A program made the position numbers and the translations under genes. This document shows, in pieces, positions 1-14,452 of a stretch of 31,108 bases of DNA. The DNA is from a virus (lineage: Duplodnaviria > Caudoviricetes): IMG/VR virus record IMGVR_UViG_3300020161_002551, positions 1 to 31,108 of that record; one strand, 5' to 3'. Position 1 is the stretch's first letter. The number at the start of each line of letters is the position of its first letter. Below the pieces are notes generated by a model, which had not been told where the DNA came from, made no database searches, and saw only the letters and a program-made list of their open reading frames with translations.

Positions 1-102
1 ACTGATGATGATCGTGGTGTTCGTTATTGTGCAGCACACAATCCTAATGCAACAGAATTAGTAAGGAGACTGTTTCTTATGACCGAGGCACAAAACCAAT
101 GA
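1..102 (+). CDS. 3' end of leucine-rich-repeat-variant (LRV/HEAT-like) protein, partial; paralogue of next gene
   Basis: Frame 1 reads TDDDRGVRYCAAHNPNATELVRRLFLMTEAQNQ*, nearly identical to the C-terminus of 99..347. Its stop overlaps the next ATG (ATGA). Confidence 0.8.
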   Translation, partial: TDDDRGVRYCAAHNPNATELVRRLFLMTEAQNQ

Positions 103-347
103 CGAATCTTGAACTCGCACAAGACCCAAACACAACATTAGAAATCCTGAAGACCCTTGCGACTGATGATAATTGGGGTGTTCGTTGTAGGGTTGCACAA
201 AATCCAAACACAACACTAGAGATTCTACAGGATCTTGCGACTGATAATAATTGGCATGTTCGTTATGATGCAGCACATCATCCAAATGCAACAGAATTAG
301 TAAGGAGACTGTATCTTATGACGCAGGAAAATTTGGGTATGGCATAG
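99..347 (+). CDS. Small LRV/HEAT-like repeat protein
   Basis: Repeated unit 'LA.D.NW.VR..VA.NPNTT.EIL..' is typical of LRV repeats. Confidence 0.75.
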   Translation: MTNLELAQDPNTTLEILKTLATDDNWGVRCRVAQNPNTTLEILQDLATDNNWHVRYDAAHHPNATELVRRLYLMTQENLGMA

Positions 348-368
348 GCACAAAAACAAAATGTTTAG

Positions 369-376
369 TATAAATA
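369..376 (+). promoter_or_regulatory. T4-type late promoter TATAAATA (second copy CATAAATA at 436-443)
   Basis: Exact gp55-dependent consensus upstream of the endonuclease gene. Confidence 0.65.
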
Positions 377-469
377 ATTCTGCCTTAACTGACCGCAATC
401 CGTAAGGTTGGGGAGGAGAAATCCTCTCCTCACATCATAAATAATAATGCGGTTAGTTTAAGAGCAGTT

Positions 470-1114
470 ATGGAAACTCCAAGAGAGTATTATACTTACG
501 CATACTTGCGTGAAGATCGAACTCCTTATTATATTGGTAAGGGTAGGGGAGATAGAGCATTTTCTTCAAATAGAACAATAAACAAACCAAAAGACCAATC
601 GAGAATAATCTTTCTAAAACAAAATTTAACTGAAGAAGAGGCATTTAGACACGAAGTTTATATGATTGCGGTTCTTGGTAGAAAGGATTTAGGAACAGGT
701 ATTCTTCATAATAGAACTAATGGTGGAGAAGGTAGTTCTGGCGCCATAAGAAGTGAAGAAACCAGAAGAATACTAAGTGAAAAAAATAAAGGAAAAAAAC
801 AATCCGAAGAAACCATAAGAAAACGAAGTGAGGCAAATAAAGGAAAAAAACGTTCAGAAGAAACCAGAAGAAAATTAAGTGAGATAAAGAAAGGAAAAAA
901 ACATTCTGAAGAACATAGAAGAAAAAACAGTGAAGCAAGGAAAGGAAAAAATAATCATAATTATGGAAAATCACCTTCGGAAGAAACCAGAAGAAAATTA
1001 AGTGAGGCAAAGAAAGGAAATAATAAAGGGAAAAAATGGTGGAACGACGGAAAAGGAAACACAAAACGTTCAATAGAATCTCCAGGATCAAACTGGGCTG
1101 TTGGTAGGAAGTAA
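470..1114 (+). CDS. GIY-YIG-family free-standing homing endonuclease with NUMOD3 repeats
   Basis: N-terminal YYTYAY...YYIGKG...R motif and conserved E and N ([16 protein letters not shown]). C-terminal repeats '[14 protein letters not shown]'. Confidence 0.85.
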
Positions 1115-1630
1115 TTTTCTTAATCCATAACGAGAAATATATTCGTCTAATGCAGTATTGATAATTGAATTCATAAATTCCTCTTCTCCTGGTACGTCTA
1201 TACCTTTTTGTAATGCTGCTTGTCTTATGATTTTGAATTTATCAATTATCGTATTTTCTTCTTCAATCTTTTTTCTTTTGTTTATTAACTTTGCATGTTT
1301 GATTCTCTTTTGCCATACCAGATTCTCTACACGATTATTCTTAAAATTTTGATCTCGATGTGTGACTATCATTTTTTCGTTATCTGTATCATTAGGAATA
1401 AATGCTAGAGCAACCAAACGATGAATGTAGAAGTTTTTTATAGTTTTTGAATCATTGCTACTGAGCCTGACATAGAGATGCCCATCTCTGGACACTGCCC
1501 AGCCAGGACTCAATTTTTTTAGTTTACGATTTTTTGTGGTCCAAACATTTCCCTCAATATCTACAATGTAATCTTGGTATTTTTCCATACCTTTAATGTC
1601 TGAGACTTCTTTATGTTTAATGGTAAGCAT
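1088..1630 (-). CDS. NUMOD4-HNH homing endonuclease
   Basis: [16 protein letters not shown] (NUMOD4-like) followed by [11 protein letters not shown]...[16 protein letters not shown] (HNH_3-like). Confidence 0.8.
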
Positions 1631-1690
1631 TGTACGTTAGTTGTTACTTTTATGATATTTAGTAAAAATTAACGTTTTTTTGAGTATTTA

Positions 1691-1760
1691 ATGATACGAA
1701 TTCTTATTGTATGTTTATGATACGAATTCGTATTGTATTTTATGTTTATGATACGAATTC
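1691..1760. repeat. Three copies of ATGATACGAATTC, including 14-bp palindrome ATACGAATTCGTAT (1720-1733)
   Basis: Copies start at 1691, 1717 and 1748. Confidence 0.85.
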
Positions 1761-1800
1761 TTATCGTTTCTTTATTATTTGTTACTATTTGTTACTTATT

Positions 1801-1910
1801 CCTTATTATTGCTTATTATTGCTTATTATTCCTTATTATTGCTTATTATTGCTTATTATTGCTTATTATTGCTTATTATTGCTTATTATTGCTTATTATT
1901 GCTTATTATT
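1801..1910. repeat. Tandem repeat (G/C)CTTATTATT x11
   Basis: Directly visible 10-bp period. Confidence 0.97.
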
Positions 1911-1941
1911 GCTTCTTTATGCCAGCAGTCTTGGGCCACCT

Positions 1942-1970
1942 ATTATCGCATCCGCCCTCTTTTTTGTCAA
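1942..1970 (-). promoter_or_regulatory. Sigma70-type promoter TTGACA-17 bp-GATAAT with extended TGn, pointing into the 10-mer repeat
   Basis: Plus strand TGTCAA at 1965-1970, ATTATC at 1942-1947 and GCA at 1948-1950. Confidence 0.65.
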
Positions 1971-2046
1971 GGGGGCCACATAAAAAACTGTCCACCCCCA
2001 TCATTCATAAGGATCACATATATCACAAATGCTCATGCCCCATTAG

Positions 2047-2272
2047 CATAAAGATCAGACTTCCTTATATCACGAATACTTATGAGTAACACACATAAAG
2101 ATCAGACTTCCTTATATCACGAATACTTATGAGTAACACACATAACGATCAGACTTTCTTATATTTGTATTCCTTATGAGTAACACACATAAAGATCAGA
2201 CTTTCTTATATTTGTATTCCTTATGAGTAACACACATAAAGATCAGACTTCCTTATATCACGAATACTTATG
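2047..2272. repeat. 47-bp tandem repeat, ~4.8 copies, each containing GATC
   Basis: Units start at 2047, 2094, 2141, 2188 and 2235 (CATAAAGATCAGACTT...CTTATGAGTAACACA). Two internal variants occur in order A,A,B,B,A. Confidence 0.95.
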
Positions 2273-2287
2273 CCTGCTTTATTTTAT

Positions 2288-2360
2288 GGCAGGGTTAACG
2301 TGGCTTACTTATCGTCAACGAGCTTCTTGCTCTCTTTCTTCCCTTGTCCATATAGTCTAG
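2288..2360 (-). ncRNA. Conserved inter-cassette element, copy 1 (promoter plus putative sRNA)
   Basis: GGCAGGGTTAACGTGGCTTAC...GAGCTTCTTGCTC...CTTGT-N6-AGTCTA. The repeat is certain; the RNA interpretation is inferred. Confidence 0.6.
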
Positions 2361-2418
2361 TCGAGTATGAGCCCCAGAACCACTTCCGCAACCAGTTTCG
2401 CCACTGGCACAAGACCCA

Positions 2419-2447
2419 TTGGCCAGGGTGGTACTTGGTCCTATATT
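2419..2447 (+). promoter_or_regulatory. Early promoter TTGGCC-17 bp-TATATT (near-identical copy upstream of 6090)
   Basis: Correct -35/-10 spacing, 27 bp before the start codon. Confidence 0.55.
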
Positions 2448-2473
2448 GATGGAGTCCCAAACGGAACCAACTA

Positions 2474-3223
2474 GTGGATCTCCTGAAAATGACCAGCGGC
2501 AACGGCAAACTTGCCAAGTCTACTCTCACCTTCAGTCTTTTGGCTGGTAAGACTTGCCCCGGCGCCAATATCTGTAAGTCTTGGGTTGCTGAAGACTCCA
2601 ACAATCGTCGCAAGATTGTTGATGGTGAGAACATGCAATTCCGTTGCTTCGCTGCAAGCAACGAAGTGATGTATCCCAATACGTATAACTCACACAAGTT
2701 CAATCTCGAACAGATTGTTAAAGCTCTTCAGGTTGGAATTGATCATTGCGCTGATCTGATTCATCGCTCGATTGATGAGAATGCGATGCGTAAGACTGAC
2801 AAGGTTCGTATTCATCCTAGTGGTGACTTCTTTAACTATGCCTATATCTCTGCATGGTATAAAGTTGCAGAACGCAATCCTGATCTTAAGTTTTATTGCT
2901 ACTCTAAGTCTCTGAATCTCTTCATTCCCGATGCTCAGTGTAACACTTTCCCGCCAAACTTCTATCTTACTGCGTCGCATGGTGGCAAGTTTGATCACCT
3001 CATTGATGAAGGTTTGTTCCCTCGTTATGCGAAAGTGGTCAAGAATGATGAGGAAGCAAGTGTTCTCGGTCTCGAAGTTGATCACGATGACTCTCATTGT
3101 TTCGGCAATCGTCCGTTTGCTCTCCTAGTTCATAGTGTCCAACCTGCTGGTAGTGAATGGGGTCAAGCTATTCGTGCTCGTAAGGCGAAAGGAGAGTTTG
3201 TAGGTTACAGTAAGAAGAAGTGA
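2474..3223 (+). CDS. Phage Gp88-like protein (Cys-rich, radical-SAM-like)
   Basis: Motifs GNGKL, FSL.AG.TCPGA..C, RCFA, RIHPSGDF and YCYSK recalled from the GP88 family. GTG start. Confidence 0.65.
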   Translation: MDLLKMTSGNGKLAKSTLTFSLLAGKTCPGANICKSWVAEDSNNRRKIVDGENMQFRCFAASNEVMYPNTYNSHKFNLEQIVKALQVGIDHCADLIHRSIDENAMRKTDKVRIHPSGDFFNYAYISAWYKVAERNPDLKFYCYSKSLNLFIPDAQCNTFPPNFYLTASHGGKFDHLIDEGLFPRYAKVVKNDEEASVLGLEVDHDDSHCFGNRPFALLVHSVQPAGSEWGQAIRARKAKGEFVGYSKKK

Positions 3224-3364
3224 CATAAGATACGGGAGAGAGAGTATAACTTTCTCTCCTTTCTAGTATGATTGGCTACTGTGCCAGATGAGAAACTGTC
3301 CACTGGAATGGTTTTCTTCGTCTGTTTCCAGTATATTGATTCTGTTGGAACTGTTTTCCTTCTC

Positions 3365-3694
3365 ATGAGCAACACCATTCTTGACAATCTGGCTGACTCA
3401 TTCATTCAACAATGTATGAGTCGAGTGATGGAACAATCATACGATAAAGAGAAGTACATTGCGGCAGCAGTAGAGATTGAGAATTGTATTCTTGGACGAG
3501 AAGTTTATTATGATGATGATTATAGCGAGGTGATGAACCTAACAGACATTTGGTTCATTCAAGAGATGAACCTAACAGACATTTGGTTCATTCAAGATTC
3601 ATGGTGGGATCAATATAATGAACTGAATCTTCAAGATTCAATATACGTTCTCAACTACATTAAAGACATTTTTCCTGATACTTGGAGACCATAA
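3365..3694 (+). CDS. Acidic hypothetical protein (start reassigned to ATG 3365)
   Basis: The upstream part of the track ORF overlaps an operator/promoter region. Contains an in-frame 33-bp duplication. Confidence 0.7.
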   Translation: MSNTILDNLADSFIQQCMSRVMEQSYDKEKYIAAAVEIENCILGREVYYDDDYSEVMNLTDIWFIQEMNLTDIWFIQDSWWDQYNELNLQDSIYVLNYIKDIFPDTWRP

Positions 3695-3707
3695 AATATA
3701 AACAACT

Positions 3708-3738
3708 GAGTTGGTGGTTATTATCACCAACTCTTTTT
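3708..3738 (+). terminator. Rho-independent terminator
   Basis: GAGTTGGTG...CACCAACTC followed by TTTTT. Confidence 0.75.
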
Positions 3739-3762
3739 GTGTTTGTTATATTATTATTTCAT

Positions 3763-3834
3763 GGCAGGGTTAGCGTGGCTTACTTATCGTCAACGAGCTT
3801 CGGGCTCTCTTCTTCTCTTGTTCCCATAGTCTAG
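3763..3834 (-). ncRNA. Conserved inter-cassette element, copy 2
   Basis: Matches the repeat consensus, with TAGACT -10 on the minus strand. Confidence 0.6.
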
Positions 3835-3967
3835 TCGGTCATGAAGCCCTGTGCCACCCTGATGGACAGTTGTGGCACTGGCACACGAAGTCTGGTGGTG
3901 TCCTGTTGGTTCTGCCATCATACCTTCAGCAGCCAACCGCTGCCGCCAATTCACTTTCGATTCTTCG

Positions 3968-4501
3968 ATGGCCTACACTCTTGAGCAAGTCGCTGATCTC
4001 CTGAATAGCATCATTGTTCCTCAGGTTGATTCTGCTCCTGTTGTCGATTCCGCTCCTGTTTCTGTTCCCGATCCTATCACCGAAAAGATCAAGAAAGAGA
4101 CGGACGAAAAGGTTGCCCAGAAAATGGCAATCGTTCAGAAGAAGATTGAAGAGATTAGTCTCATCAATGCTACATTTCAGGTCATTCTTGAAGATTATCT
4201 GGGTGTACCTACGTCGGAATTGATTGTTCGATTGTTGGACAAGTGCCGCAGGAATAGCACAATGAACTTCAACGAGTTCTGTGCTGCTTATACTTTTCCT
4301 GGAATCAAAGGTGATTTGCACAAGCGTAACCTTTTGATCGTCACTTCTGCACTTTATCGTCTGAAAGTGAAGGATCTTAATGTTACTGCTAAAGGCACAC
4401 TTCGTTCCGTTGTCAAATATACTTCCATGTGCGAAGAGTGTGGAAGTCTGGCTAAGAAACTTGTTGATCGTCTTGATATTCAAGGCATCAAGTTCTCATA
4501 A
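3968..4501 (+). CDS. Hypothetical protein (start reassigned to ATG 3968, MAYTLEQ...)
   Basis: Long ORF downstream of the cassette promoter region. Confidence 0.7.
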   Translation: MAYTLEQVADLLNSIIVPQVDSAPVVDSAPVSVPDPITEKIKKETDEKVAQKMAIVQKKIEEISLINATFQVILEDYLGVPTSELIVRLLDKCRRNSTMNFNEFCAAYTFPGIKGDLHKRNLLIVTSALYRLKVKDLNVTAKGTLRSVVKYTSMCEECGSLAKKLVDRLDIQGIKFS

Positions 4502-4584
4502 GGTGACAATTCAATAACTGTCTCAGGGGCACCTAGAAGACCCTACAGTGCCCCTATAATGAATAAGTCAACCCAAGACACCTC

Positions 4585-4767
4585 ATGACTTACAAAGAAC
4601 TTCTGCAACAACTCCAACAACTCAACGAGGAACAACTCAATTCTGATGTTTGCATCTGGAATAGTGATGAATCTTTTGATGAGTTTTATCAGTATGGAGT
4701 AGAGTTTGTGTTTGCAACTGAAGAATGTCAAGCACTTGACGTTGATCACCCTATCATTCGTTTCTGA
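4585..4767 (+). CDS. Small acidic hypothetical protein
   Basis: Follows TATAAT at 4555-4560. First of five overlapping genes. Confidence 0.75.
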   Translation: MTYKELLQQLQQLNEEQLNSDVCIWNSDESFDEFYQYGVEFVFATEECQALDVDHPIIRF

Positions 4768-4898
4768 TGATGACTCCCGAAACTTACAACTTTACTGGTG
4801 ATGGTGTGACAGTTCTAGGACTGGTCGGTGTCATCTCCACTGGCATCATTCTGGTGCTATGCTTCACTCGTTACTTCAATTCTCCCCTGAGGAAATGA
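4767..4898 (+). CDS. 43-aa single-pass membrane protein (not in ORF track)
   Basis: MMTPETYNFTGDGVTVLGLVGVISTGIILVLCFTRYFNSPLRK*, with start/stop overlaps at both ends. Confidence 0.7.
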   Translation: MMTPETYNFTGDGVTVLGLVGVISTGIILVLCFTRYFNSPLRK

Positions 4899-5071
4899 CT
4901 GACCTTCGTTACTCTAATGGTACAGAACTTTTTGAGTTTCTGTATGCTAAATGTCGCCAAGATCCTGACCTGCTTGCTACTATCGTTGATGAGTACATTG
5001 TCTCTCTCAGTGATAGCAAACGGATTGAACTTGAGGACTTCCTTATGAACAACTTTGGAGATGATGAATGA
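4895..5071 (+). CDS. Small acidic hypothetical protein (start ATG 4895)
   Basis: ATGA overlap with the upstream stop. Confidence 0.7.
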   Translation: MTDLRYSNGTELFEFLYAKCRQDPDLLATIVDEYIVSLSDSKRIELEDFLMNNFGDDE

Positions 5072-5217
5072 CTGAAACTCTGCACACTGTCGAACTCACC
5101 AACCTGGAAATCTCCACCATTCTTTTCTACATTGAAGGTGGAGTGCAAGGTATTGATGAGACTGAGATTGAACCTGAAGTCTATTCAATTTTTCAAAAAC
5201 TGGAGAACGTTAAATGA
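5068..5217 (+). CDS. 49-aa acidic hypothetical protein (not in ORF track)
   Basis: MTETLHTVELTNLEISTILFYIEGGVQGIDETEIEPEVYSIFQKLENVK*, with ATGA overlaps at both ends. Confidence 0.7.
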   Translation: MTETLHTVELTNLEISTILFYIEGGVQGIDETEIEPEVYSIFQKLENVK

Positions 5218-5405
5218 ATCCCGATGATCGTGATGCCCTGATTCAATCATACATTGATCAGGTGATTGATAACATGGACACAAAGGATCTTGTTCGCATT
5301 GTATGGGAACAATTGGAGGAGAATCTTTCCCTGTATTCTGATGAAGAATTGAAGACCGAGATTGGAGATCATTATCCCGAACTGCTGGAGGATGTGACAG
5401 TCTGA
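5214..5405 (+). CDS. Highly acidic 63-aa hypothetical protein
   Basis: 18 D/E versus 4 K/R. ATGA coupling with the upstream gene. Confidence 0.75.
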   Translation: MNPDDRDALIQSYIDQVIDNMDTKDLVRIVWEQLEENLSLYSDEELKTEIGDHYPELLEDVTV

Positions 5406-5476
5406 CAACTGGCACAAGGGGTCTTGAGGTTTCTCAGGATCCCTGCAATAATACTTTTGTTCACCACAGAACTCCC

Positions 5477-5848
5477 ATGAGCAGCCAACAACAGTATTTC
5501 GGTCTCGGTGGAATCGAGCTGATCGGAACTGATACTTTCAAGTATCAAGAACAGATCGCTTTTCGTTACTGTTTTCAAGCATGGAAAGTGTTTTCAATCG
5601 AAGAGAATCTGATTGAGACTGATAGGTTCTACGTTTGGTCTGATGCTGTAGATAAAGCATACAAGATTGCAGTTGCTCATGTCTATCGTGGCCATAATGA
5701 AAAGTATCAACCTGAAGTTGATGCTGGTGAGAATGGTGGACGTTACGAAGTTGATCTGGATGAACAACATCGTGAAGTGATTGTCGAAACAAAAGAAGCA
5801 TGGAACGTCTTAATCGCTGGCAATCGAGATGACTTTTATCTCGGTTGA
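5477..5848 (+). CDS. Hypothetical protein
   Basis: Own operator/promoter at ~5396-5452, followed by a terminator. Confidence 0.75.
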   Translation: MSSQQQYFGLGGIELIGTDTFKYQEQIAFRYCFQAWKVFSIEENLIETDRFYVWSDAVDKAYKIAVAHVYRGHNEKYQPEVDAGENGGRYEVDLDEQHREVIVETKEAWNVLIAGNRDDFYLG

Positions 5849-5854
5849 TTGAGA

Positions 5855-5881
5855 AAGGGAGAGTTATACTCTCCTTTTTTT
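5855..5881 (+). terminator. Rho-independent terminator
   Basis: GGAGAG-TTATA-CTCTCC plus a T run. Related hairpins occur at ~7180, ~7746 and ~8905. Confidence 0.75.
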
Positions 5882-5906
5882 CTTAATGTTTATATTTTTT
5901 TATGAT

Positions 5907-5978
5907 GGCAGGGTCAGCGTGGCTCACTTGTCGTCATCGAGCTTCGGGCTCTCTTCTTCGCTTGTGACCCTATCCTAG
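5907..5978 (-). ncRNA. Conserved inter-cassette element, copy 3
   Basis: Consensus match, with TAGGAT -10 on the minus strand. Confidence 0.6.
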
Positions 5979-6089
5979 ACCATTCTGGCCACCAGTGCCA
6001 CCCTGATGGCCAGTTCCACCACTGGCACAAGACCCATTGGCCAGGGTGGTACTTGGCCCTATATTGATTGAGCAGTCAGCACTCCGACC

Positions 6090-6761
6090 ATGAACCGCTC
6101 CGAAGTGATGGATAAGATCAGGGCCATGATGGCTCTCAAGGAAGGCACTACCTTCGAGCAGGAAGCAGATAATGCTGCTCGAATGATTGACCGTCTTTGT
6201 GAGAAGTATGGCGTCACGGTGAATGATGCTCTCACTCCCGAAGTGTTGGATGAAAATTATCAATCGTTCAAGCGATTCGATAATGCTAATGGCATTTTGT
6301 TCTCTGCTGTCGCTACATTTTATGATGCGATGGCGTACATCTCTCGGGCAACAAAAGAACTGAAGTTGATTGGTACCGAAGCCCAACAGATTCAGGCTCG
6401 TCTTTATCATGAATACCTGTATGAAAGCATGGAGGTTGAGTGTAAGAAAGCCTATACTGCTGAGAAGATTCTGGCAGAATTGACCGGCAAAAGTATGAAC
6501 AAAGGATTCAAAGCAAACTTTAGACTTGCTTTTGCTCGTAGTGTTCAGCAACGTCTGGTGGAAAAGAAGAAAGAAGAGAATCGTATTCACGAACACGCTG
6601 GATACACAAAGGACACTCTTTCTACTCGTAGATTCTCTACTCGTAGGGTTTCATCTGCTCATGGTGATGGTGCTTTCTCTGGTGATTCTGCTGGCAATTC
6701 TGTATCTCTTCACCGGCAGGCTAATGGTTCTGCACAACGTCAACTGACTGGGGTTCGCTGA
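6090..6761 (+). CDS. DUF2786-domain protein
   Basis: N-terminal 'DKIRAMMAL...EQEADNAARMIDRLCEKYGV' fits the DUF2786 pattern. Confidence 0.7.
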   Translation: MNRSEVMDKIRAMMALKEGTTFEQEADNAARMIDRLCEKYGVTVNDALTPEVLDENYQSFKRFDNANGILFSAVATFYDAMAYISRATKELKLIGTEAQQIQARLYHEYLYESMEVECKKAYTAEKILAELTGKSMNKGFKANFRLAFARSVQQRLVEKKKEENRIHEHAGYTKDTLSTRRFSTRRVSSAHGDGAFSGDSAGNSVSLHRQANGSAQRQLTGVR

Positions 6762-6785
6762 TGCAAATGACAGTATAGTAGGCTG

Positions 6786-6818
6786 CGAGAGAGAGTAGCA
6801 ATGCTCTCTCTCCTTTTT
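6786..6818 (+). terminator. Rho-independent terminator
   Basis: GAGAGAGAG...CTCTCTCTC followed by CTTTTT. Confidence 0.7.
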
Positions 6819-6939
6819 GTATATTTTTCCGTTTTTCGTGATTCCTGTGCCAATGGTCAGACTGTCTACCAATGCTCTGAAAGGCCCCCAGAAGCCCCAG
6901 GAAGGCTGCTACAATACGGAAGACCACCTAGGACATCCC

Positions 6940-7158
6940 ATGGCTGCCATTATCCCCGATCCGTTCCGTCGCTGGGTTCAAGGCACAGCTTACGAAGCCA
7001 CCACCGACGAATACACTCAGGATGGTACCTGCATCGGCATCGGTACAATCGACATCACCAGACATGCCCGAGCCTGTGGCGTAACCTACGCATCGCCAGT
7101 TTCTTATACCAAACCAGAGAAAGACTTGGGTGATCTGTTTCTTGAATTGTTCGGTTGA
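6940..7158 (+). CDS. Hypothetical protein (start reassigned to ATG 6940, MAAIIPD...)
   Basis: Preceded by extended -10 TGCTACAAT (~6907-6915). Confidence 0.65.
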   Translation: MAAIIPDPFRRWVQGTAYEATTDEYTQDGTCIGIGTIDITRHARACGVTYASPVSYTKPEKDLGDLFLELFG

Positions 7159-7231
7159 TAACTATAACAATTCATAAGGAAGGGAGAGTATAACTCTCCT
7201 TTTTTTTCTATTGTTTATATTTTTTTATGAT

Positions 7232-7303
7232 GGCAGGGTTAGCGTGGCTTACTTGTCGTCGTCGAGCTTCGGGCTCTCTTCTTCTCTTGTCCCTATAGTC
7301 TAG
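7232..7303 (-). ncRNA. Conserved inter-cassette element, copy 4
   Basis: Consensus match. Confidence 0.6.
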
Positions 7304-7413
7304 TCCATCATGGGGCTCCCAGCCTCTCCAGTGGACGGTTTGACCACTGGCACAATGGGGTTGACTTTTCGTTTAATCGGTGCAATCATTAATGGGTAGT
7401 CAACCAATCGACC

Positions 7414-7737
7414 ATGGATTATTCCAAAGCGGTGATGTCTCTGCTGAATAAGTTCCAAACGAGGGGTGTAGCCATCACCCGAATTTATGATGGCATGGAG
7501 TGGGAGAAAGTGACTGGAGATCATAATCTTCAGATTAGAAAGAATGCGACCGAGATTGTCACGTCGGTTGACATCTCTACCGTGCAGGTTGAGCATGATG
7601 GAGTGATCGGATTGTTGACTATTGTTCTTGGAAACGATGAAAGTGAGATTCTTTGTGATTATAGCGCAAAAAAAGATTCACAGTTGATGCACATTATTGA
7701 TAAAGTTGCGGATGAGTTCTATACACAATGGGAGTGA
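7414..7737 (+). CDS. Hypothetical protein
   Basis: Single-gene cassette between copies 4 and 5. Confidence 0.75.
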   Translation: MDYSKAVMSLLNKFQTRGVAITRIYDGMEWEKVTGDHNLQIRKNATEIVTSVDISTVQVEHDGVIGLLTIVLGNDESEILCDYSAKKDSQLMHIIDKVADEFYTQWE

Positions 7738-7795
7738 TACTTTCGGGGGGAGTTATACTCTCCCTTTTTTCTTAATCTTTATACTATTATTAAAT

Positions 7796-7866
7796 GGCAG
7801 GGTTAGCGTGGCTTACTTTCGTCGTCAGCCTTCGGGGCCTCGTCTTCCTTTGTTCCCATAGTCTAC
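7796..7866 (-). ncRNA. Conserved inter-cassette element, copy 5 (GCC/GGC hairpin variant)
   Basis: Consensus match, with TGG-TAGACT on the minus strand. Confidence 0.6.
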
Positions 7867-7935
7867 CATGCCACAGGCCCAGTGCATCATCAGTATTTCT
7901 GATCTGTAACATAAAAAACTTTTATCGTTTAGGTA

Positions 7936-7964
7936 TTGACTTGGCCATGGTTGATCTGTATTCT
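7936..7964 (+). promoter_or_regulatory. Early promoter TTGACT-17 bp-TATTCT
   Basis: Canonical spacing, immediately before the shared leader and ATG 7995. Confidence 0.65.
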
Positions 7965-7994
7965 ATTGGAGTCGTCAGGGATTCCTCTCCCACC

Positions 7995-8309
7995 ATGCGT
8001 AAGATCGAACGTCTGATGAATGATGCAATCAAGGCATCAAAAGACTGGAAACTCGACAACACTGCCGTGGTCGCACTTGACAATCATTCTGAGGTTTATC
8101 TTTATGACAATCTTATCGCAAGGATTGGAGAAACCTGGATTCAACTTTTCGATGGTGGATGGAGAACACACACCACAAAGTCTCGCCTGAACGCTATTCT
8201 CGAAGGCAATGGATTGCCCGAGGAAGGTGTATTCCAAAAGAAAGGAGTTTGGTACGTTCTGTATAATGGATCTCCCATTCCATTCTTTTCAGGTATGCGT
8301 CTGAATTGA
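7995..8309 (+). CDS. Cyanophage-type hypothetical protein (MRKIERLMNDAI..., start reassigned)
   Basis: ATG follows the shared leader GGAGTCGTCAGGGATTCC. Motif TTKSRLNA. Confidence 0.8.
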   Translation: MRKIERLMNDAIKASKDWKLDNTAVVALDNHSEVYLYDNLIARIGETWIQLFDGGWRTHTTKSRLNAILEGNGLPEEGVFQKKGVWYVLYNGSPIPFFSGMRLN

Positions 8310-8315
8310 TTGTAT

Positions 8316-8347
8316 AAAGAATGAACCAAAAGTTCATTCTTTTTTTT
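8316..8347 (+). terminator. Rho-independent terminator (same hairpin at ~11021-11053; covarying version at ~12432-12460)
   Basis: AAAGAATGAAC-CAAAA-GTTCATTCTTT plus a T run. Confidence 0.75.
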
Positions 8348-8369
8348 ATTCTTTATACTTTAGTATCAA

Positions 8370-8440
8370 GGCAGGGTTAGCGTGGCTTACTTTCGTCATC
8401 GAGCTTCGGGCTCTCTTCTTCGCTTGTGACCCTATCCTAG
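8370..8440 (-). ncRNA. Conserved inter-cassette element, copy 6
   Basis: Consensus match, with TGC-TAGGAT on the minus strand. Predicted +1 at 8427. Confidence 0.6.
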
Positions 8441-8558
8441 CAGACCGTGGCGCCGGATCCTAGGCTGATGGACAGTTTGACCACTGGCACAATTGGGGCT
8501 GGCAGGGTCGGGAATCTCGGTTATCTTTAGGGAGTCGAAAGGGACAGGAGCCCTGCTA

Positions 8559-8897
8559 ATGACCACCACCACTCAACGCCTTGAGGTTGTTTCCGCTCAG
8601 CTGAAAGCTTTGTTGCAGCAGGAAACTGCTCTGAAGCAGCAGATCGCCAACACTCGTCAGGAGCTGCTCAACACTGCTATTGCTTACAATAGCGACCACA
8701 AGACTATCACCACCGCCAGCGGCACAGTTACAATCGCTGAAGTTCATGCTAAGACCTACTCTAACAAGGTCGCAAAACTCAGCGATAAAGTGGAAGAATG
8801 GAAGGCAAAAGTTGCCGCACAAAAACTCATCGAGGATCGTCTCGGTACGGTTATTCTTTCTGATCCCACTCTTCAGCTTCGATTCAAGGCAATCTGA
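8559..8897 (+). CDS. Coiled-coil hypothetical protein (start reassigned to ATG 8559)
   Basis: MTTTTQRLEVV..., downstream of -10 TATCTT. Confidence 0.7.
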   Translation: MTTTTQRLEVVSAQLKALLQQETALKQQIANTRQELLNTAIAYNSDHKTITTASGTVTIAEVHAKTYSNKVAKLSDKVEEWKAKVAAQKLIEDRLGTVILSDPTLQLRFKAI

Positions 8898-8955
8898 TAC
8901 TTTCGGGGGGAGTTATACTCTCCCTTTTTTCTTAATCTTTATACTTTAGTATCAA

Positions 8956-9026
8956 GGCAGGGTTAGCGTGGCTTACTTTCGTCGTCAGCCTTCGGGGCCT
9001 CTTCTTCGCTTGTGACCCTATCCTAG
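8956..9026 (-). ncRNA. Conserved inter-cassette element, copy 7
   Basis: Consensus match (GCC/GGC variant). Confidence 0.6.
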
Positions 9027-9146
9027 CAGACCATGGCGCCGGATCGTGGCTCCGTCACAAAACTTTATGTGTTGGTTTGTGAACCGGATCGTTGGTTCTG
9101 GGCAGGCGCCATGGTAGGATTCTGGAGTCGTCAGGGATTCCCCGCC

Positions 9147-9317
9147 ATGCCATTCTCCTTCGTTCCTTGCTCAGACATCGAAACCGGCAACGATTGCTGG
9201 GCATTAAATGACTTCGAGAATCGCCGGATTCATGTACTCGAATCCTGGCAGATTCAGTCATTCATGGACAAAAGGTATGGGATAGTTCATGAGAATAAGT
9301 ATAAACTTATGGATTGA
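9147..9317 (+). CDS. 56-aa hypothetical protein (start reassigned)
   Basis: ATG follows the shared leader. Extended -10 TGGTAGGAT upstream. Confidence 0.65.
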   Translation: MPFSFVPCSDIETGNDCWALNDFENRRIHVLESWQIQSFMDKRYGIVHENKYKLMD

Positions 9318-9427
9318 TGAGCTTCTAGGGGCCTGGGTATCCTAGGCTCCTTTTGCAAGCCAGAATGAGGAAAAAAGTATTTTTCTCATTCAACGTTTAA
9401 TCTTTCGTCCTTTTGTTATTCTTTCTC

Positions 9428-9685
9428 ATGTCGAACGATCAGTTCATTCAGTCTGCCATAATTCTTGGGGAATACTCTCTCATTTCTGAGTGGGACATGG
9501 TACAGGAAGACTATACTTCCATGACAGAAGATGCCTTTCTGGATTGGATCAAAACTTATCAATACTATCACGCATTGGTATGTTCGACTAAAGGCAATCC
9601 TAATGAGATCGCCTACCAGTTGCAGGCAGACTATAAAGAGTTAAATGAGCAGATTGCCTTGGACCATGAAGATAATGAAGATTGA
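9428..9685 (+). CDS. Acidic hypothetical protein
   Basis: MSNDQFIQ..., followed by a terminator at ~9708-9744. Confidence 0.7.
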   Translation: MSNDQFIQSAIILGEYSLISEWDMVQEDYTSMTEDAFLDWIKTYQYYHALVCSTKGNPNEIAYQLQADYKELNEQIALDHEDNED

Positions 9686-9774
9686 CCGCATTTAATACAA
9701 CAATACGTGAGAGAGATTAACTATAACAATCTCTCTCATTTTTTCTTTATACTTTTTTCGGGGTAGTATTTTAT

Positions 9775-9846
9775 GGCAGGGTTAGCGTGGCTTACTTGTC
9801 GTCGTCGAGCTTCGGGCTCTCTTCTTCGCTTGTGACCTTATCCTAG
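9775..9846 (-). ncRNA. Conserved inter-cassette element, copy 8
   Basis: Consensus match. Confidence 0.6.
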
Positions 9847-10007
9847 CAGCACCAGAGCCAGACCGTGAGACCGTGACGGGCAATCGTAACAGAGCTTCAC
9901 AATGGCCAGGCTTCGCAGGCTTTAGGTTTTATTCCGTTTTCGGTGGCTGTTCTGGCTTGTCGTGCTGCTACCATTAGGGAGTCGTCAGGGATCGCTTCCC
10001 TCCTACC

Positions 10008-10238
10008 ATGACCTTCTCTCCTGATTCCGCAGCCACTAGCAGCCCGACTCCTACGGATTATGTGGAAGCTCTCCGCATCTTTTATGATCCCAATTCAGGA
10101 ACGGTGCCATTCTGGATCGCCAGATCATGCGCCGAACTGATTGGTTTGTCTGCCCAATTTTCCGAAGATTATGGACATCTCGAAGGAGAAAAACTTGACC
10201 TTGGTGAGTTTAATGTTTGGGCGATTGAGCTGATGTGA
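10008..10238 (+). CDS. Hypothetical protein
   Basis: Shared leader upstream and terminator at ~10252-10275. Confidence 0.7.
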   Translation: MTFSPDSAATSSPTPTDYVEALRIFYDPNSGTVPFWIARSCAELIGLSAQFSEDYGHLEGEKLDLGEFNVWAIELM

Positions 10239-10302
10239 GTTATACTCAACCGGGGGCAACTTTGCCCCTTTTTTTATACTTTTGGGGAGGGTAGTATTTT
10301 AT

Positions 10303-10374
10303 GGCAGGGTTAGCGTGGCTTACTTGTCGTCGTCAGCCTTCGGGGCCTCTTCTTCGCTTGTGATCCTATCCTAG
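10303..10374 (-). ncRNA. Conserved inter-cassette element, copy 9
   Basis: Consensus match (GCC/GGC variant). Confidence 0.6.
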
Positions 10375-10497
10375 CAGGTCATGGCGCTGGATCCGGTCGC
10401 TGTTACAACACTTAACATTCCGTTTTGGTATCAACCGATACAGACTGTAGAACCGGGTTCGTTTATCTTTAAGGAGTCGTCAGGGATTCCTCCCGCC

Positions 10498-10767
10498 ATG
10501 CAGATCATTCGATACTGTGCCGAGAATGACTACAATGGAAACCCTCAAAGGGTTTATGTCATGCTCGATGAAGATTCTAACCAGATTGCACAATGGGATG
10601 AAGGTTATTATGGTTTTCACGCTGTACCTGGACCCTGGCGTGATGATGCCTATAGGGCAGAAAGAATCAGTGTTTCGGTGAAAAAATACAAGCGTATTCT
10701 GCGCCAGATTCCTACTTTCCAGTGGGCGCATGATGTCCCAGGTTATTCTCATCTGCGCCAACCATAA
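10498..10767 (+). CDS. Hypothetical protein (start reassigned to ATG 10498)
   Basis: ATG follows the shared leader. Confidence 0.75.
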   Translation: MQIIRYCAENDYNGNPQRVYVMLDEDSNQIAQWDEGYYGFHAVPGPWRDDAYRAERISVSVKKYKRILRQIPTFQWAHDVPGYSHLRQP

Positions 10768-10832
10768 GACAACAATGGGGGAGCAATCCTCCCCCTATTC
10801 TTTCACCTTTCCCCCCCAACCATAAGACAACA

Positions 10833-11015
10833 ATGGAAGACGCAATCCTGACCGCATTGTTCAACCTTTCCCGACTGAATAACAAGTGCTATGAGCATTG
10901 GATCATTCAACTTTATGAGTTCAATGGTGAGAAAATCCATGAAGAATGGAATTCACAAACTCTTAAATTGATGGAAAATGACGTGATGGCTATGTCTATT
11001 CTTCACACAATCTGA
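10833..11015 (+). CDS. 60-aa hypothetical protein
   Basis: ORF directly before a terminator. Confidence 0.6.
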   Translation: MEDAILTALFNLSRLNNKCYEHWIIQLYEFNGEKIHEEWNSQTLKLMENDVMAMSILHTI

Positions 11016-11077
11016 AAGTATAAAGAATGAACCAAAAGTTCATTCTTTTTTTTCTATTCTTTATACTTTAGTATCAA

Positions 11078-11149
11078 GGCAGGGTTAGCGTGGCTTACTT
11101 GTCGTCATCGAGCTTCGGGCTCTCTTCTTCTCTTGTTCCCATAGTCTAC
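11078..11149 (-). ncRNA. Conserved inter-cassette element, copy 10
   Basis: Consensus match. Confidence 0.6.
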
Positions 11150-11283
11150 AGCATCATGGCGCCTGCTGCGGTCGCTGTTACAACACTTAACATTCCAGCG
11201 GGTTTCGGATTCTGTATCAAACGATACAGACTGGAGCATCGGTTCCGACTACCTTTAGGGAGTCGTCAGGGATTCCTCCCGTC

Positions 11284-11823
11284 ATGTCTCAGACTCTCAC
11301 CGGCTCCGCTCTCCTGGCTCTCCATCGTGCAGTCACCAACGCCGGACTGACCAAAGGTCCGGCTGTGATTCAGGCAGGTTACGTTCGTGATAACGAGCGC
11401 CCAAATTTTTGTGATTATTATACAAATGTCATGATCGCAATGGTGCAGGAAGAGTATAAGAATCGCACGAAAAAAACAATCGTGAATCAGTTATTGGATG
11501 CAATTCAGTATAAAATGCCTTTCAATAAAGGCAAGCTGAATGTCTACGTTCAGACTGAGAATACGTACATTGTCGGCAATAAAGTTGTGGTCTATTATGA
11601 TGGTCAGCCGATTGCTGTCATTCGGGACAATGATTCGTTTCCTAATAACATGAGCCTAGGGCATCATGATAACAAAAACCAGGCAATCAAGACCTACCTT
11701 AATGCAATCGCACGTTACTTTGCGGGAGGAAAGGTAACCGAACGCAACGGAGTTTGGTGGATTGGTACAGGCGCCAGTGAGGAAGTATTCACGGGAGATT
11801 GGCATTATCTGACCAAGATTTGA
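11284..11823 (+). CDS. Hypothetical fusion: cyanobacterial AbrB-like N-terminal segment plus paralogue of 7995..8309
   Basis: LTGSALL...AGYV...ERPNF resembles the AbrB-like N-terminus. The C-terminal part aligns by eye with the 7995 protein. Confidence 0.6.
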   Translation: MSQTLTGSALLALHRAVTNAGLTKGPAVIQAGYVRDNERPNFCDYYTNVMIAMVQEEYKNRTKKTIVNQLLDAIQYKMPFNKGKLNVYVQTENTYIVGNKVVVYYDGQPIAVIRDNDSFPNNMSLGHHDNKNQAIKTYLNAIARYFAGGKVTERNGVWWIGTGASEEVFTGDWHYLTKI

Positions 11824-11895
11824 TCCCAGTTTGTATCATCGGGGGAAGGCAAGTCCTTCCCTTTCTTTATACTTTTGGGGAGGGTAGTATTTTAT

Positions 11896-11967
11896 GGCAG
11901 GGTTAGCGTGGCTTACTTGTCGTCATCGGGCTTCGTGCCCTCGTCTTCGCTTGTCCCCATAGTCTAG
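11896..11967 (-). ncRNA. Conserved inter-cassette element, copy 11 (GGGC/GCCC compensatory variant)
   Basis: Consensus match with a double change that keeps the stem paired. Confidence 0.6.
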
Positions 11968-12122
11968 CAGCGCCAGGGCCAGACTGCGAGACCGTGACAG
12001 GCTTCCGTAACAGAGCTTCACAATGGCCAGGCTTCGCAGGCTTTAGGTTTTCTTCCGTTTTCGGTGGCTGTTCTGGCTTGTCGTGCTGCTACCATTAGGG
12101 AGTCGTCAGGGGATTCCCCGCC

Positions 12123-12425
12123 ATGCCTCGCACCATCACAAACAACGTTCCCCGTCCGCTCTACAGCACCTTTGAACTTACCAGTGCTGAGAGGGAGCAT
12201 CTTAAAAAGGAATTGAACTATCTCACACAGGAAGAGTTTGACTCTACTTCCGTCTTCAAGTACCGGGAGGAGTGGTACAGCATGGACCAATTCTGTCGCC
12301 TCGATGGTGACATGTTGCGCCAAGGATGGCAAGGTTATTTTGGCGAAACTGCATGGTCTTCGATTATCATTAAGATCGTCAACTCTCACACTGAGGTTGT
12401 AGTGGGCAGGCACATCTGCGACTGA
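12123..12425 (+). CDS. Phage hypothetical protein
   Basis: Shared leader upstream and terminator downstream. Confidence 0.75.
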   Translation: MPRTITNNVPRPLYSTFELTSAEREHLKKELNYLTQEEFDSTSVFKYREEWYSMDQFCRLDGDMLRQGWQGYFGETAWSSIIIKIVNSHTEVVVGRHICD

Positions 12426-12486
12426 TACTATAAAGTACACACCAAAAGTGTGTACTTTTTCTTTATTCTTTATACTTTAGCATCAA

Positions 12487-12558
12487 GGCAGGGTTAGCGT
12501 GGCTTACTTGTCGTCGTCGAGCTTCGGGCTCTCTTCTTCGCTTGTGACCCTATCCTAG
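12487..12558 (-). ncRNA. Conserved inter-cassette element, copy 12
   Basis: Consensus match. Confidence 0.6.
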
Positions 12559-12700
12559 CAGACCGTGGCGCCGGATCCGGTCGCTGTTACAACACTTAAC
12601 ATTCCAGATCGCCGACACTTCTACCGATTTCCTTAAGGTTTTGACCGTCGGATCGGGCAGGCTGACCTGTAGGATAGATGGGTAGTCAGGGATTCCTCCC

Positions 12701-12901
12701 ATGTTCTTTGATCGTTTCGACATCGTTGAGGCACACTACGCCTTCTGCTCCGACGAACATGGCGGCATGGGATCGGAGCTGTATGGGCGCCTATGCAAAA
12801 TGCAACGCTATTTCAGGCCCGGTGCGGCATGGCGTGGTTATCATTCTCTCAGTGAGAATGGCCAGGTGATTTATGACAATCTTGTCAGCAAGTTTGCCTG
12901 A
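12701..12901 (+). CDS. Phage hypothetical protein (FDRFDI.EA.Y type)
   Basis: Leader variant GTCAGGGATTCCTCCCATG and -10 TAGGAT upstream. Confidence 0.7.
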   Translation: MFFDRFDIVEAHYAFCSDEHGGMGSELYGRLCKMQRYFRPGAAWRGYHSLSENGQVIYDNLVSKFA

Positions 12902-12962
12902 CAGTATAGTTTGGGGAGGCAAGTCCTCCCTCATTCTTTGCACTTTCCCTGAGAATCTCACC

Positions 12963-13205
12963 ATGCGCCTTATCAATCTCACCATCACTTCTAATGAGAT
13001 TCAGTTAGCTGACGGGACCGAAATCCTGTTTAGTTATGGTGCCCCAGTGGCTGCCAGAATCCCTGGGATGGGTTTTGTTAGGACTGACAAGTTCTACAGT
13101 AAAACTACAATTAAGCACATCGATCTGTGGTTAAATGATAAGATCGGGAAGGACATTGTTCCGGCGGTTGATCAATGGGAGCTTGACAAGTTAGTCGCAT
13201 TTTGA
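12963..13205 (+). CDS. Phage hypothetical protein (LFSY..PVAA...YSKTT.KHI type; start reassigned)
   Basis: ATG 12963 follows a hairpin. Motif pattern is common in cyanophage early proteins. Confidence 0.75.
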   Translation: MRLINLTITSNEIQLADGTEILFSYGAPVAARIPGMGFVRTDKFYSKTTIKHIDLWLNDKIGKDIVPAVDQWELDKLVAF

Positions 13206-13338
13206 TCACTTATGGGGCAGCAAGTCTGCCCCTAACAGTATAAAAAACAGTGTTTTTCCCGATGTAACGATCTAAGCCCGGCGCCTAGCGCCTAAAAAAG
13301 AAAGGTACCATATAAGCTATAAAAGTAAATATCGACCT

Positions 13339-13416
13339 CATAAAATCCCGCCCATAAAAAATTTCCCCCACCCCCCAAAAAAAAAAATCCCCCCATAAAA
13401 AATTTCCCCATAAATA
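13339..13416. repeat. C-tract/A-tract block with CCCATAAAAAATTTCCCC x2, ending in late promoter CATAAATA
   Basis: Directly visible. Marks the boundary between the cassette array and the late genes. Confidence 0.75.
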
Positions 13417-13444
13417 CCTGCATATATCACATTATTACTGAAGT

Positions 13445-13624
13445 ATGGACAAGATATATCACATTTATATCAAAGGGGAATGTAAATATCATAGTTTATC
13501 AGAAGAAGAATTTAATGCAATTTGGAATTATTTGGATAAACTCTGTTGGGTATCAGAGATTGACAGAGAGGACATTGAATATGAGGAGCTGGACTCACCC
13601 CTCATAAATAGTATCGAGCATTGA
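13445..13624 (+). CDS. 59-aa cyanophage hypothetical protein (not in ORF track)
   Basis: MDKIYHIYIKGECKYHSLSEEEF..., downstream of a late promoter. Confidence 0.75.
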   Translation: MDKIYHIYIKGECKYHSLSEEEFNAIWNYLDKLCWVSEIDREDIEYEELDSPLINSIEH

Positions 13625-13657
13625 TGCTGACATTTTTACCTTATATTAAAGATTATC

Positions 13658-14452
13658 ATGGCAAAAGGATTTCAAGTTAAGACAAAAGAAGAACCAAAAC
13701 AGGAATGGGATTTTGATAAGATCAAACAAAGAATGAAAGGCAAAACAATTGCTATCTGCATTCCAGGTAGGCAATGTTCCTTTGTATTCATGAAGGCAAT
13801 GATCAGACTATGCTTTGATCTTGCAAATAACGGAACTGCATTTCATCTATTTCAAGAATACTCATCAATGGTTAATTTCGCCCGCTGTCGAGTATTGGGG
13901 GCAAATGTGCTGAATGGGCCAAATCAGAAGCCATGGAATGGTCAGATTGATTATGATTGGCAACTATGGATCGATAGTGACATTGTATTTGATTCTGATG
14001 CATTCTGGAAACTCTGTGATCTTGCATTCCCAGAAGATGCAATCTGCCCCGAGACAAATGAAATTGATGAATCAAAATTAAATCATGTATCATCCGGTTG
14101 GTATTGTACTGAGGATGGACATTCTGCTGCAGCAGCTCATTGGCTCGAAGAAGCAGATTTTCGTAAGAATGGAGGAATGATGAAGAATGAAACTGTAGAA
14201 TCCATGGCAAGGCGTAACAAACCATTCAAAGTTGATTATGTTGGATTCGGATGGGTCATGGTCAGAAAAGGTATTTTTGAATCATTGCCTTATCCATGGT
14301 TTGCACCTAAATTGCAGATTTTCGAAAACGGAGATGTGCAGGATATGTGCGGGGAGGATGTATCATTCTGTCTTGATGCCAAACAAAATGGATTTGAGGT
14401 CTGGTGCGATCCTCGTATTCGTGTAGGACATGAGAAGATGAGAGTAATCTGA
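13658..14452 (+). CDS. Conserved cyanomyovirus protein, GT-A/GT2-like glycosyltransferase fold
   Basis: WIDSD (DxD) motif, GFGW, GEDVSFC and VGH. MAKGF.VK start typical of T4-like cyanophages. Confidence 0.75.
   Translation: MAKGFQVKTKEEPKQEWDFDKIKQRMKGKTIAICIPGRQCSFVFMKAMIRLCFDLANNGTAFHLFQEYSSMVNFARCRVLGANVLNGPNQKPWNGQIDYDWQLWIDSDIVFDSDAFWKLCDLAFPEDAICPETNEIDESKLNHVSSGWYCTEDGHSAAAAHWLEEADFRKNGGMMKNETVESMARRNKPFKVDYVGFGWVMVRKGIFESLPYPWFAPKLQIFENGDVQDMCGEDVSFCLDAKQNGFEVWCDPRIRVGHEKMRVI

Follow-up and report, generated by a model that had tools for sequence, protein, structure and literature searches.

A multicopy promoter and small RNA unit on the minus strand of a T4-like cyanophage early region, possibly encoding a protein-binding decoy RNA

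The stretch of viral DNA studied here, positions 1–31,108 of IMG/VR record IMGVR_UViG_3300020161_002551 and hereafter called the window (31,108 nucleotides (nt)), contains 12 near-identical copies of a short non-coding unit, set between small genes, in which a predicted promoter is followed by a likely small RNA gene, all on the minus strand and in a single orientation. The unit is real, conserved and apparently undescribed, and is probably a multicopy phage small RNA gene; its function is a prediction from sequence comparison. The window is a fragment of a T4-like cyanophage, in which genes for Kyano_Gp96, GP88 and the baseplate proteins gp25 and gp6 were found; its gp6 is at most 57% identical to that of cultured phages. 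The virus is assigned to Kyanoviridae, and its hosts are likely picocyanobacteria that live in lakes or estuaries, given that the psbD product of a relative that carries the unit (G005) has up to 96–97% identity to Cyanobium and Synechococcus proteins. The copies are spread over a GC-richer plus-strand array of small, mostly single-gene units (2288–13205) that lies upstream of the baseplate genes gp25/gp6 and includes genes for GP88, DUF7326, DUF2786/DUF7168 and Kyano_Gp96 together with open reading frames (ORFs) without assignment. Most array genes have a terminator-like hairpin and a promoter of their own. By analogy with other T4-type phages, the array is probably the early region.

Read on the minus strand, copy 1 (2288–2359) has a TAGACT −10 box at 2359–2354, a predicted transcription start (+1) at 2347, a short hairpin (stem 1) at 2332–2320 and the end of its conserved core at 2288. 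The same box is present in copy 2 (3763–3833, +1 at 3821, stem 1 at 3807–3795), copy 4 (7232–7302, 7290, 7276–7264) and copy 10 (11078–11148, 11136, 11122–11110) and, with a TG extension, in copy 5 (7796–7865, 7853, 7839–7827) and copy 11 (11896–11966, 11954, 11940–11928). TAGGAT replaces it in copy 3 (5907–5977, 5965, 5951–5939) and, with a TG extension, in copies 6 (8370–8439, 8427, 8413–8401), 7 (8956–9025, 9013, 8999–8987), 8 (9775–9845, 9833, 9819–9807), 9 (10303–10373, 10361, 10347–10335) and 12 (12487–12557, 12545, 12531–12519). Copies 5, 6 and 7 are 1 nt shorter, and stem 1 takes the form GGCC/GGCU in copies 5, 7 and 9 and GGGC/GCCC in copy 11. The distance from +1 to the end of the terminal CCUGCC is 58–60 nt. 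An earlier reading made from the sequence alone (the sequence-only reading) had described these two −10 boxes, the TGn extension in copies 5–9, 11 and 12, and a spacer of 6 nt after the box, all of which were borne out; the 11 starts that it listed coincide with the predicted +1 positions, and the start that it omitted, that of copy 5, is 7853. No further copy was found in the window at six or fewer mismatches to the 23-nt core. Plus-strand terminator-like hairpins of the upstream genes precede copies 2–7 (3708–3733, 5851–5881, 7176–7206, 7745–7765, 8316–8342 and 8905–8925) and copies 8–12 (9708–9738, 10252–10269, 11022–11048, 11841–11863 and 12432–12458), each 25–36 nt from the copy, with a T-run that is strong on the plus strand and mostly weak on the minus strand. 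Copy 1 has no terminator hairpin and reads into 47-nt repeats.

Pattern scans located the unit in 16 IMG/VR contigs and in ~69 metagenome contigs, many of them redundant. Once one locus (L032) had been dropped as a chance match, 215 loci from related uncultured phages, together with the window, yielded 203 distinct copies. The arrays comprise 6–12 copies per genome and do not extend beyond the early region, which holds also for contigs of 133 and 101 kb. A covariance model (R1), trained on 66 copies that included the 12 in the window and many of the other copies matched, gave 105 matches in 16 long sources, all at 69.7–94.9 bits, with nothing weaker up to an E-value of 1, so that no decayed copies were found in these sources. 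Among the 104 distinct matches 21 columns are invariant, mostly outside stem 1, and identity between genomes is 0.80–0.84 in the core as compared with 0.33–0.56 in the flanks. No family in Rfam 15 matches the unit, the sole match in the window being DapZ, at an E-value of 0.96, on a terminator; scans of the window for tRNA and tmRNA gave nothing. None of 50,697 cultured-phage records covers 80% of the unit. The early regions of S-CREM1, DSL-LC02, S-SZBM1 and S-SCSM2R gave a best E-value of only 1.1, and pattern matches in the whole records of these four phages and S-PM2 were at the level of controls. Literature searches on the RNAs of phages and cyanophages, on early promoters and on kink-turns and leaders turned up no description of the motif. 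They did not extend to the alignments of PMC10690425, which lists >10,000 candidate viral RNAs, so that the motif may be among these; in the supplements of that paper that were searched, no match was obtained with four 10-nt motifs or with six contig names.

A TAnnnT box precedes 202 of the 203 distinct copies, where ~13% would be expected by chance, and it occurs as TAGACT (96), TAGAAT (39), TAGGAT (23), TATGAT (23), TATAGT (12), TATTCT (8) and TATTAT (1). Fixed T, A and T with variable middle bases are the signature of sigma70 promoters. An A is found exactly 7 nt past the hexamer in 188/188 distinct upstream sequences, a feature that the script did not demand, and a TG extension is present in 125/202 copies; no conserved hexamer was found near −35 (≤0.53 bit). 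The unit has a −10 box at a fixed distance from a purine start, as expected of a sigma70-type small RNA gene. Of 25 host rpsD upstream regions, 10 also have, by eye, TAGGAT, TAGAAT or TAGACT at a similar place; the promoters of these genes are unmapped.

Stem 1 (4 base pairs (bp), with a loop that is mostly AAGAA, ACGAA or CCGAA) is paired in all 203 copies on the promoter-sense strand, whereas on the opposite strand its pairs 1 and 4 form in only 188/203 and 128/203, since in 15 and 75 copies, respectively, these pairs are G-U wobbles, for which the plus strand would have A-C mismatches. Pair 2 swaps between A-U and G-C and pair 3 between G-C and C-G, both compensatory changes, and these pairs are the strongest covarying columns (average product correction (APC) scores of 0.84 and 0.91). 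Slid controls are only 18–47% paired. Since two of the patterns used for searching prescribed some of the 3′ arm, the scan was repeated with the 3′ half only, and the full stem 1 was present in 50 of 53 matches; the other three came from unrelated records without a model match and were dropped as chance. The covariation and strand bias of stem 1 proposed from the window are thus real and hold in the homologues, in the larger alignment of 203 copies. The remainder of the structure fared differently. In the proposed stem 2 the outer two pairs hold but the rest, as drawn, is not supported: the third pair forms in 10/104 copies, and the inner three form in 91, 79 and 77 of 104 with compensation not beyond independence. 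The 60-nt core folds no better than its shuffles (z = −0.04 for copy 12 and 0.25 for copy 7). The comparative data argue strongly for a predicted promoter with a small RNA on the minus strand, but of the ~60-nt structured RNA that had been claimed, only stem 1 stands. A UGACG/UGCCA helix of greater length, in either of two registers, and a mini-hairpin formed by AC and GU both fit the invariant bases and were rejected, as neither shows covariation beyond independence. A hammerhead-like core was rejected because the bases required by the hammerhead sequence that we assumed for the comparison vary, and boxA was rejected because the host leader site has no match. The invariant single-stranded blocks keep a fixed spacing around variable bases. 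It is suggestive that a 1-nt deletion converts a GANNA loop to GAAA in 7 of 8 short copies. The 30 nt past the core are 64% A.

On the plus strand, the early promoters share a predicted start motif, GAGTCGTCAGGG, which is exact at 7969, 9125, 9979, 10474, 11260 and 12100 and has two mismatches at 8532 and 12680 (range 7969–12691); each site is 5–8 nt past a TAnnnT box, and the eight matches compare with 1.31 expected in the window. A forward AGTC(G) start motif 5–8 nt after a −10 box is present in 113 of 189 divergent regions. With the forward pattern [TC]AnnnT-N5-AGTC, 98 distinct cases were obtained in which the divergent −10 boxes are 78–86 bp (57 cases), 89–94 (31), 101–102 (2), 112 (1), 123–124 (6) or 153 (1) apart. 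The spacings, in the window (2359–12701) and in homologues, cluster at about 82, 92, 102, 112 and 123 bp (10.5-bp phase, p 0.007, 19 distinct distances), which suggests that the small RNA and forward promoters work from the same DNA face. A TGGCAC box is present 37–38 bp ahead of the forward −12 base in 61/69 occurrences, suggesting a single activator site that serves both directions.

The start of the forward leaders also bears on how the RNA might act. The conserved UGACGAY and CCCUG blocks are the exact complement of the leader start AGUCGUCAGGG, the eight occurrences of which in the window exceed expectation as given above, as would be the case for a regulator that base-pairs with the phage's own early mRNAs or with a host RNA. 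However, the motif occurs in only 13/113 leaders, while the blocks do not vary, and the order of the two blocks does not suit a single duplex. By duplex energies, pairing is no stronger with leaders from the same genome than with those from other genomes, and in 9/11 arrays it is stronger with shuffled leaders. In five phage records all 37 occurrences of GTRAGCCAC lie inside a unit, and the antisense match to the host rRNA operon is not above chance. Conserved, co-varying complementarity to a target was not found. We consider a base-pairing role very unlikely, and the antisense regulator suggested by the sequence-only reading has little in its favor. Its antitoxin mimic has no host counterpart in the genomes searched; a type III antitoxin or CRISPR repeat mimic was rejected because no homologous host RNA was found (no pattern match in GTDB contigs or in any of 301 host-family genomes, and model matches at an E-value of 0.05 in 7/121 host genomes with ~6 expected, only 41 candidates being scored per genome).

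A start codon at one position behind the purine-rich leader (AUG in 141, GUG in 35 and UUG in 12 copies, 188/203 in all) could make the RNA a mimic of a translation start that traps the 30S subunit or the phage repressor RegA, or the source of a 7-residue peptide; a 7-codon frame is present in 108 copies, and regA was found in the relatives G005 and G006. But 5 of the 12 window copies have ACG at that position, the frame varies from 7 to >30 codons, and four third positions never change, whereas five different residues occur at codon 3; this explanation appears as improbable as base-pairing. A frame ending in UAA or UGA after Asp-rich codons was also rejected, as there is no in-frame start past +1 in 203/203 copies.

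The transcript could instead prime replication. At T4 origins a transcript forms an R-loop, and an R-loop on the A-rich tail might act in this way, the unit having spread along the array from the copy next to the tandem repeats. These repeats (1684–2272, between the HNH gene and the first cassette) comprise a 26/31-nt repeat, 14.2 units of an AT-rich 10-nt repeat and 4.8 units of a 47-nt repeat, and are a possible origin region. Copy 1 reads into the 47-nt and AT-rich 10-nt repeats, the terminal copies of relatives read into similar repeats, and the A-richness past the core agrees with such a role. Priming, however, leaves selection on all copies, and the copies that end at terminators, unexplained, and no DnaA box was found in window positions 1–14000. 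The replication primer put forward earlier thus fits at most the copy beside the repeats and not the others, and as an account of the unit it is highly improbable.

The limits of the unit are defined by exceptions to the usual arrangement. In each of the relatives G001, G003, G004 and G005 the array ends in a copy that points the opposite way from the rest and retains a −10 box of its own; that of G004 passes directly into the next promoter region, with no terminator after it. The window and G002 lack an inverted terminal copy, and at four junctions in the window a promoter-like site is present and the unit is absent. The inverted copies that keep the −10 box and the junctions that have a promoter alone indicate that the unit consists of the −10 box plus the core; it is a predicted promoter with its RNA and part of neither the terminator nor the forward promoter. 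Distinct inverted end copies were noted at L095:5040-5270, L092:4455, L094:3914 and L096:4422, with a GC-rich hairpin before and a DUF6011 gene after the copy where this was read.

These arrays also raise the question of whether the repeats function as DNA. The window and G002 do not have the same gene order, the changes falling at the boundaries of the unit, and copies are mosaics of shared alleles, with 9/9 allele combinations for most pairs of blocks. In T4-type phages, promoter(early)-stem-loop (PeSL) cassettes shuffle early ORFans (PMC2839356). The unit could therefore be a PeSL-like recombination cassette or a protein-binding site in DNA, on which promoter and hairpin are passengers and the RNA has no function. 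Sequence identity is sufficient for recombination, however, and compensated pairs are not needed for it; the wobble pairs function on one strand only, the strand that would be transcribed from the −10 box, and the promoter geometry is kept in 188/188 sequences. A function confined to DNA is distinctly unlikely.

The explanation that we favor, with a probability somewhat below even, is that the unit encodes a dosage-amplified, protein-binding decoy RNA carried on PeSL-like gene cassettes. A predicted extended −10 promoter of host type, back to back with an early-gene promoter, would drive each copy, and host RNA polymerase would transcribe it early, together with the forward gene, giving an RNA of about 60 conserved bases with an A-rich tail. 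With 6–12 copies per genome, the RNA would be supplied in large amounts early in infection and would act in trans, probably by decoy binding that ties up a host RNA-binding protein. The recombination described above would then be a side effect, the repeats serving as points at which gene cassettes are shuffled. We infer a stoichiometric role from the many intact copies, and the invariant unpaired blocks at fixed spacing suggest a protein-bound fold better than they suggest an antisense seed; taken together, the two point to a decoy. Of the four functions proposed by the sequence-only reading, decoy is the one that best fits the comparative data. The takeover of the host by T4-like cyanophages is usually credited to small early proteins, and an RNA gene in 6–12 intact copies would, if the decoy reading is correct, add an RNA arm to this takeover and explain the likeness of the junctions. 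As the unit is short, has predicted starts that are exact to the base and can be synthesized, its partner can be named without a cultured phage.

The weakest step of this explanation is the identity of the target, for which a 16S rRNA-binding protein such as uS4 would be the first candidate because the 3′ half of the unit resembles a strand of host 16S helix 17–18. When 51 sampled copies were aligned with gaps to the Cyanobium 16S gene, 40 aligned best to a single site, which we take to be the helix 17–18 strand near the uS4 site; uS4 presumably contacts the 16S region of these helices. At the Cyanobium site the blocks GAAGAAGA, TGACG, TAAGCCAC, GCTAA and TGCCA run in the order of the unit, and by reading, 13 of the 15 bases that are invariant in the 3′ half can be placed on it. 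The 3′ half outscores 173/173 real host chunks in four scoring schemes, and in comparisons with shuffles the counts were 0, 3, 0 and 0 of 200 for Cyanobium 16S versus 20, 7, 11 and 19 of 200 for a non-cyanobacterial control, the 16S in L431, an E. coli RefSeq record; as this gene is not of the E. coli type, it served only in that capacity. This control (L431:1260-2776) is 1517 nt long with a short helix 17 region, unlike that of E. coli, and the record is likely a chimeric assembly. The exact 16S variant is present in 5/201 Cyanobacteriota genomes, many of which lack rRNA genes, and all five are from the host-family sample. GUAA is conserved in 153/203 copies of the unit; in Firmicutes S4 leaders, GUAA is an rRNA-imitating motif (PMC7247131). 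It is nevertheless quite unlikely that a cyanophage lineage derived a small RNA gene from a strand of host 16S helix 17–18, complete with a GUAA like that of S4 leaders, and uses the RNA to capture uS4 or another 16S-binding factor; the combined proposal, in which the gene has spread to all early cassette junctions, is driven there by bidirectional promoters in helical phase and floods the cell with its product, is unlikely to the same degree. If it were true, a 16S mimic would stop host ribosome assembly or rRNA antitermination, or would shield ribosomes from a defence nuclease. A ribosomal protein as partner would also make this a phage RNA that competes with rRNA, a description of which was not found in the literature searched. 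Many host rpsD leaders (L406-L430) share GTGCA and CCAGCATG blocks, and these may represent a picocyanobacterial S4 leader.

A number of results weigh against the decoy reading and its 16S target. The resemblance to 16S came up after several other ideas had been tried, and the alignment requires four gaps, three of 1 nt and one longer. With 16S and 23S taken together, the counts vary with the gap costs chosen, at 0, 13 and 8 of 150 shuffles. Neither nhmmer (E-value of 0.35) nor the covariance model (no match at the 16S site) recovers the resemblance, an ungapped profile gave nothing above chance on either strand of the Cyanobium rRNA operon, and the leader with stem 1 is not significant against host chunks (25–81 of 173). 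The partner strand of helix 18 (GUGGC) has no counterpart in the unit, GCUAA is kept in only 103/203 copies, GUGA is read in 46 copies, and all four 16S blocks are identical in only 37/203. The host rpsD leaders are unlike the unit. Gene conversion among copies may keep them alike without each being functional. Finally, on the minus strand the T-run past the hairpin mostly has 1–3 T in 8, and a hairpin is shared by 122/197 copies with sufficient flank, the other 75 having none within 90 nt; these two features leave the 3′ end undefined and make cis action by read-through possible.

A cis-acting element, in which the nascent RNA or convergent transcription acts on RNA polymerase, is an unlikely explanation, though the most probable of the rivals to the decoy. 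In its variants, which jointly share this standing, head-on collision would insulate the upstream cassette at its terminator, or read-through antisense RNA would coat the early mRNAs. Eleven of the 12 window copies aim at the nearby terminator of the upstream gene, and the termination signals are weak on the minus strand. The 5-nt GANNA loop (GAAA in 7 of the 8 short copies) between an invariant AC and GU recalls boxB-type loops, as we take these to be. On the other hand, collision alone does not need a conserved RNA sequence, the inverted terminal copies converge with no gene, the four promoter junctions lack the unit, and the AC/GU stem is only two pairs in which compensatory change is absent.

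Other partners were considered for the RNA in its favored role as a decoy. The flanks of stem 1 are kink-turn-like, with GA, a G-C-closed stem, a 3-nt bulge that ends in U, and then GA, and of the features by which PMC9723947 defines a kink-turn (see also PMC6779385) they have one half, namely the C helix, the 3-nt bulge and the tandem GA. The pair next to the bulge is G-C in 188/203 and G-U in 15/203 copies, the 3-nt spacing is present in 50/50 true copies recovered by a scan that did not specify it, and at the tandem GA positions GA follows the bulge in 203/203 copies, whereas before the stem A is present in 203/203 and G in 195/203. Unlike in a kink-turn, the non-canonical helix has no canonical continuation, the next three positions pairing in 68, 32 and 1 of 203 copies, equal to chance. 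L7Ae was rejected as a partner, PF01248 being present in 0/4 picocyanobacterial genomes and 0/1 phage record. An L1 site was rejected because the unit keeps the upper half only and lacks the lower GG/CC helix; host rplA leaders have GGGG...CCCC around the stem. An L1-site-like leader (GGGGGAGAC...GTCG...CCCC) lies right before picocyanobacterial rplA in 18 loci (L386-L405). Among the early ORFs, a search of the ESM Atlas for a partner protein gave nothing usable for ORFs of 123 and 72 residues.

Several neighboring features were noted. Beside the array in the window are an LRV/HEAT-repeat ORF (99–347), a NUMOD3 homing endonuclease (470–1114) and a convergent HNH gene (1088–1630). A cassette of G001 (L092:8147-8629) holds an ArdA-like anti-restriction gene (PHROG E-value of 1.5e-8), which fits an anti-defence region, and an IS605-family TnpB gene (L092:13617-14810) adjoins the early array of G001. 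The psbA region of G005 (L216-L218) is broken by stops near homing-endonuclease-like ORFs and likely contains an intron.

The layout of the genome is like that of a PeSL array, with a repeated promoter and terminator stem-loop between early ORFans and gene reordering at the repeats, yet the unit is not a PeSL member. The PeSL of RB49 and phi1 (PMC2839356) likewise recur in the intergenic spaces of small early ORFans, each with a sigma70-type promoter and a terminator hairpin, and gene order shifts at the repeats, but they have a consensus −35 box and no separate RNA gene, whereas here a second, divergent promoter and a conserved, covarying 60-nt unit are present on the opposite strand. The S4 leaders that imitate 16S resemble the unit in the conserved GUAA and, possibly, in sequence likeness to the 16S 5′ domain; they are cis-acting in rpsD operons (PMC7247131), while the phage unit is free-standing and multicopy and cannot by itself close helix 18. 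Like the abiF, wcaG, manA and glnA RNAs of S-CREM1 (PMC9964418), it is a putative non-coding RNA of T4-like cyanophages, but it has no Rfam family, and S-CREM1 lacks it.

Mimicry offers the closest parallels to the decoy reading. RNA anti-CRISPRs are phage non-coding RNAs that act by mimicry, each a single copy of a host RNA that can be identified. For a phage RNA mimic amplified in dosage there is a precedent in the pseudo-ToxI of PhiTE (PMC3475682), a non-coding RNA whose dose is set by copy number and for which mimicry is proposed; its copies are tandem repeats of a recognizable host RNA. The unit differs from both in that its copies lie apart from one another, every one behind a promoter of its own, and in that no homologous host antitoxin or CRISPR repeat was found in the genomes searched. 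If the decoy reading holds, the unit would work like an amplified pseudo-ToxI, without being a member of that group.

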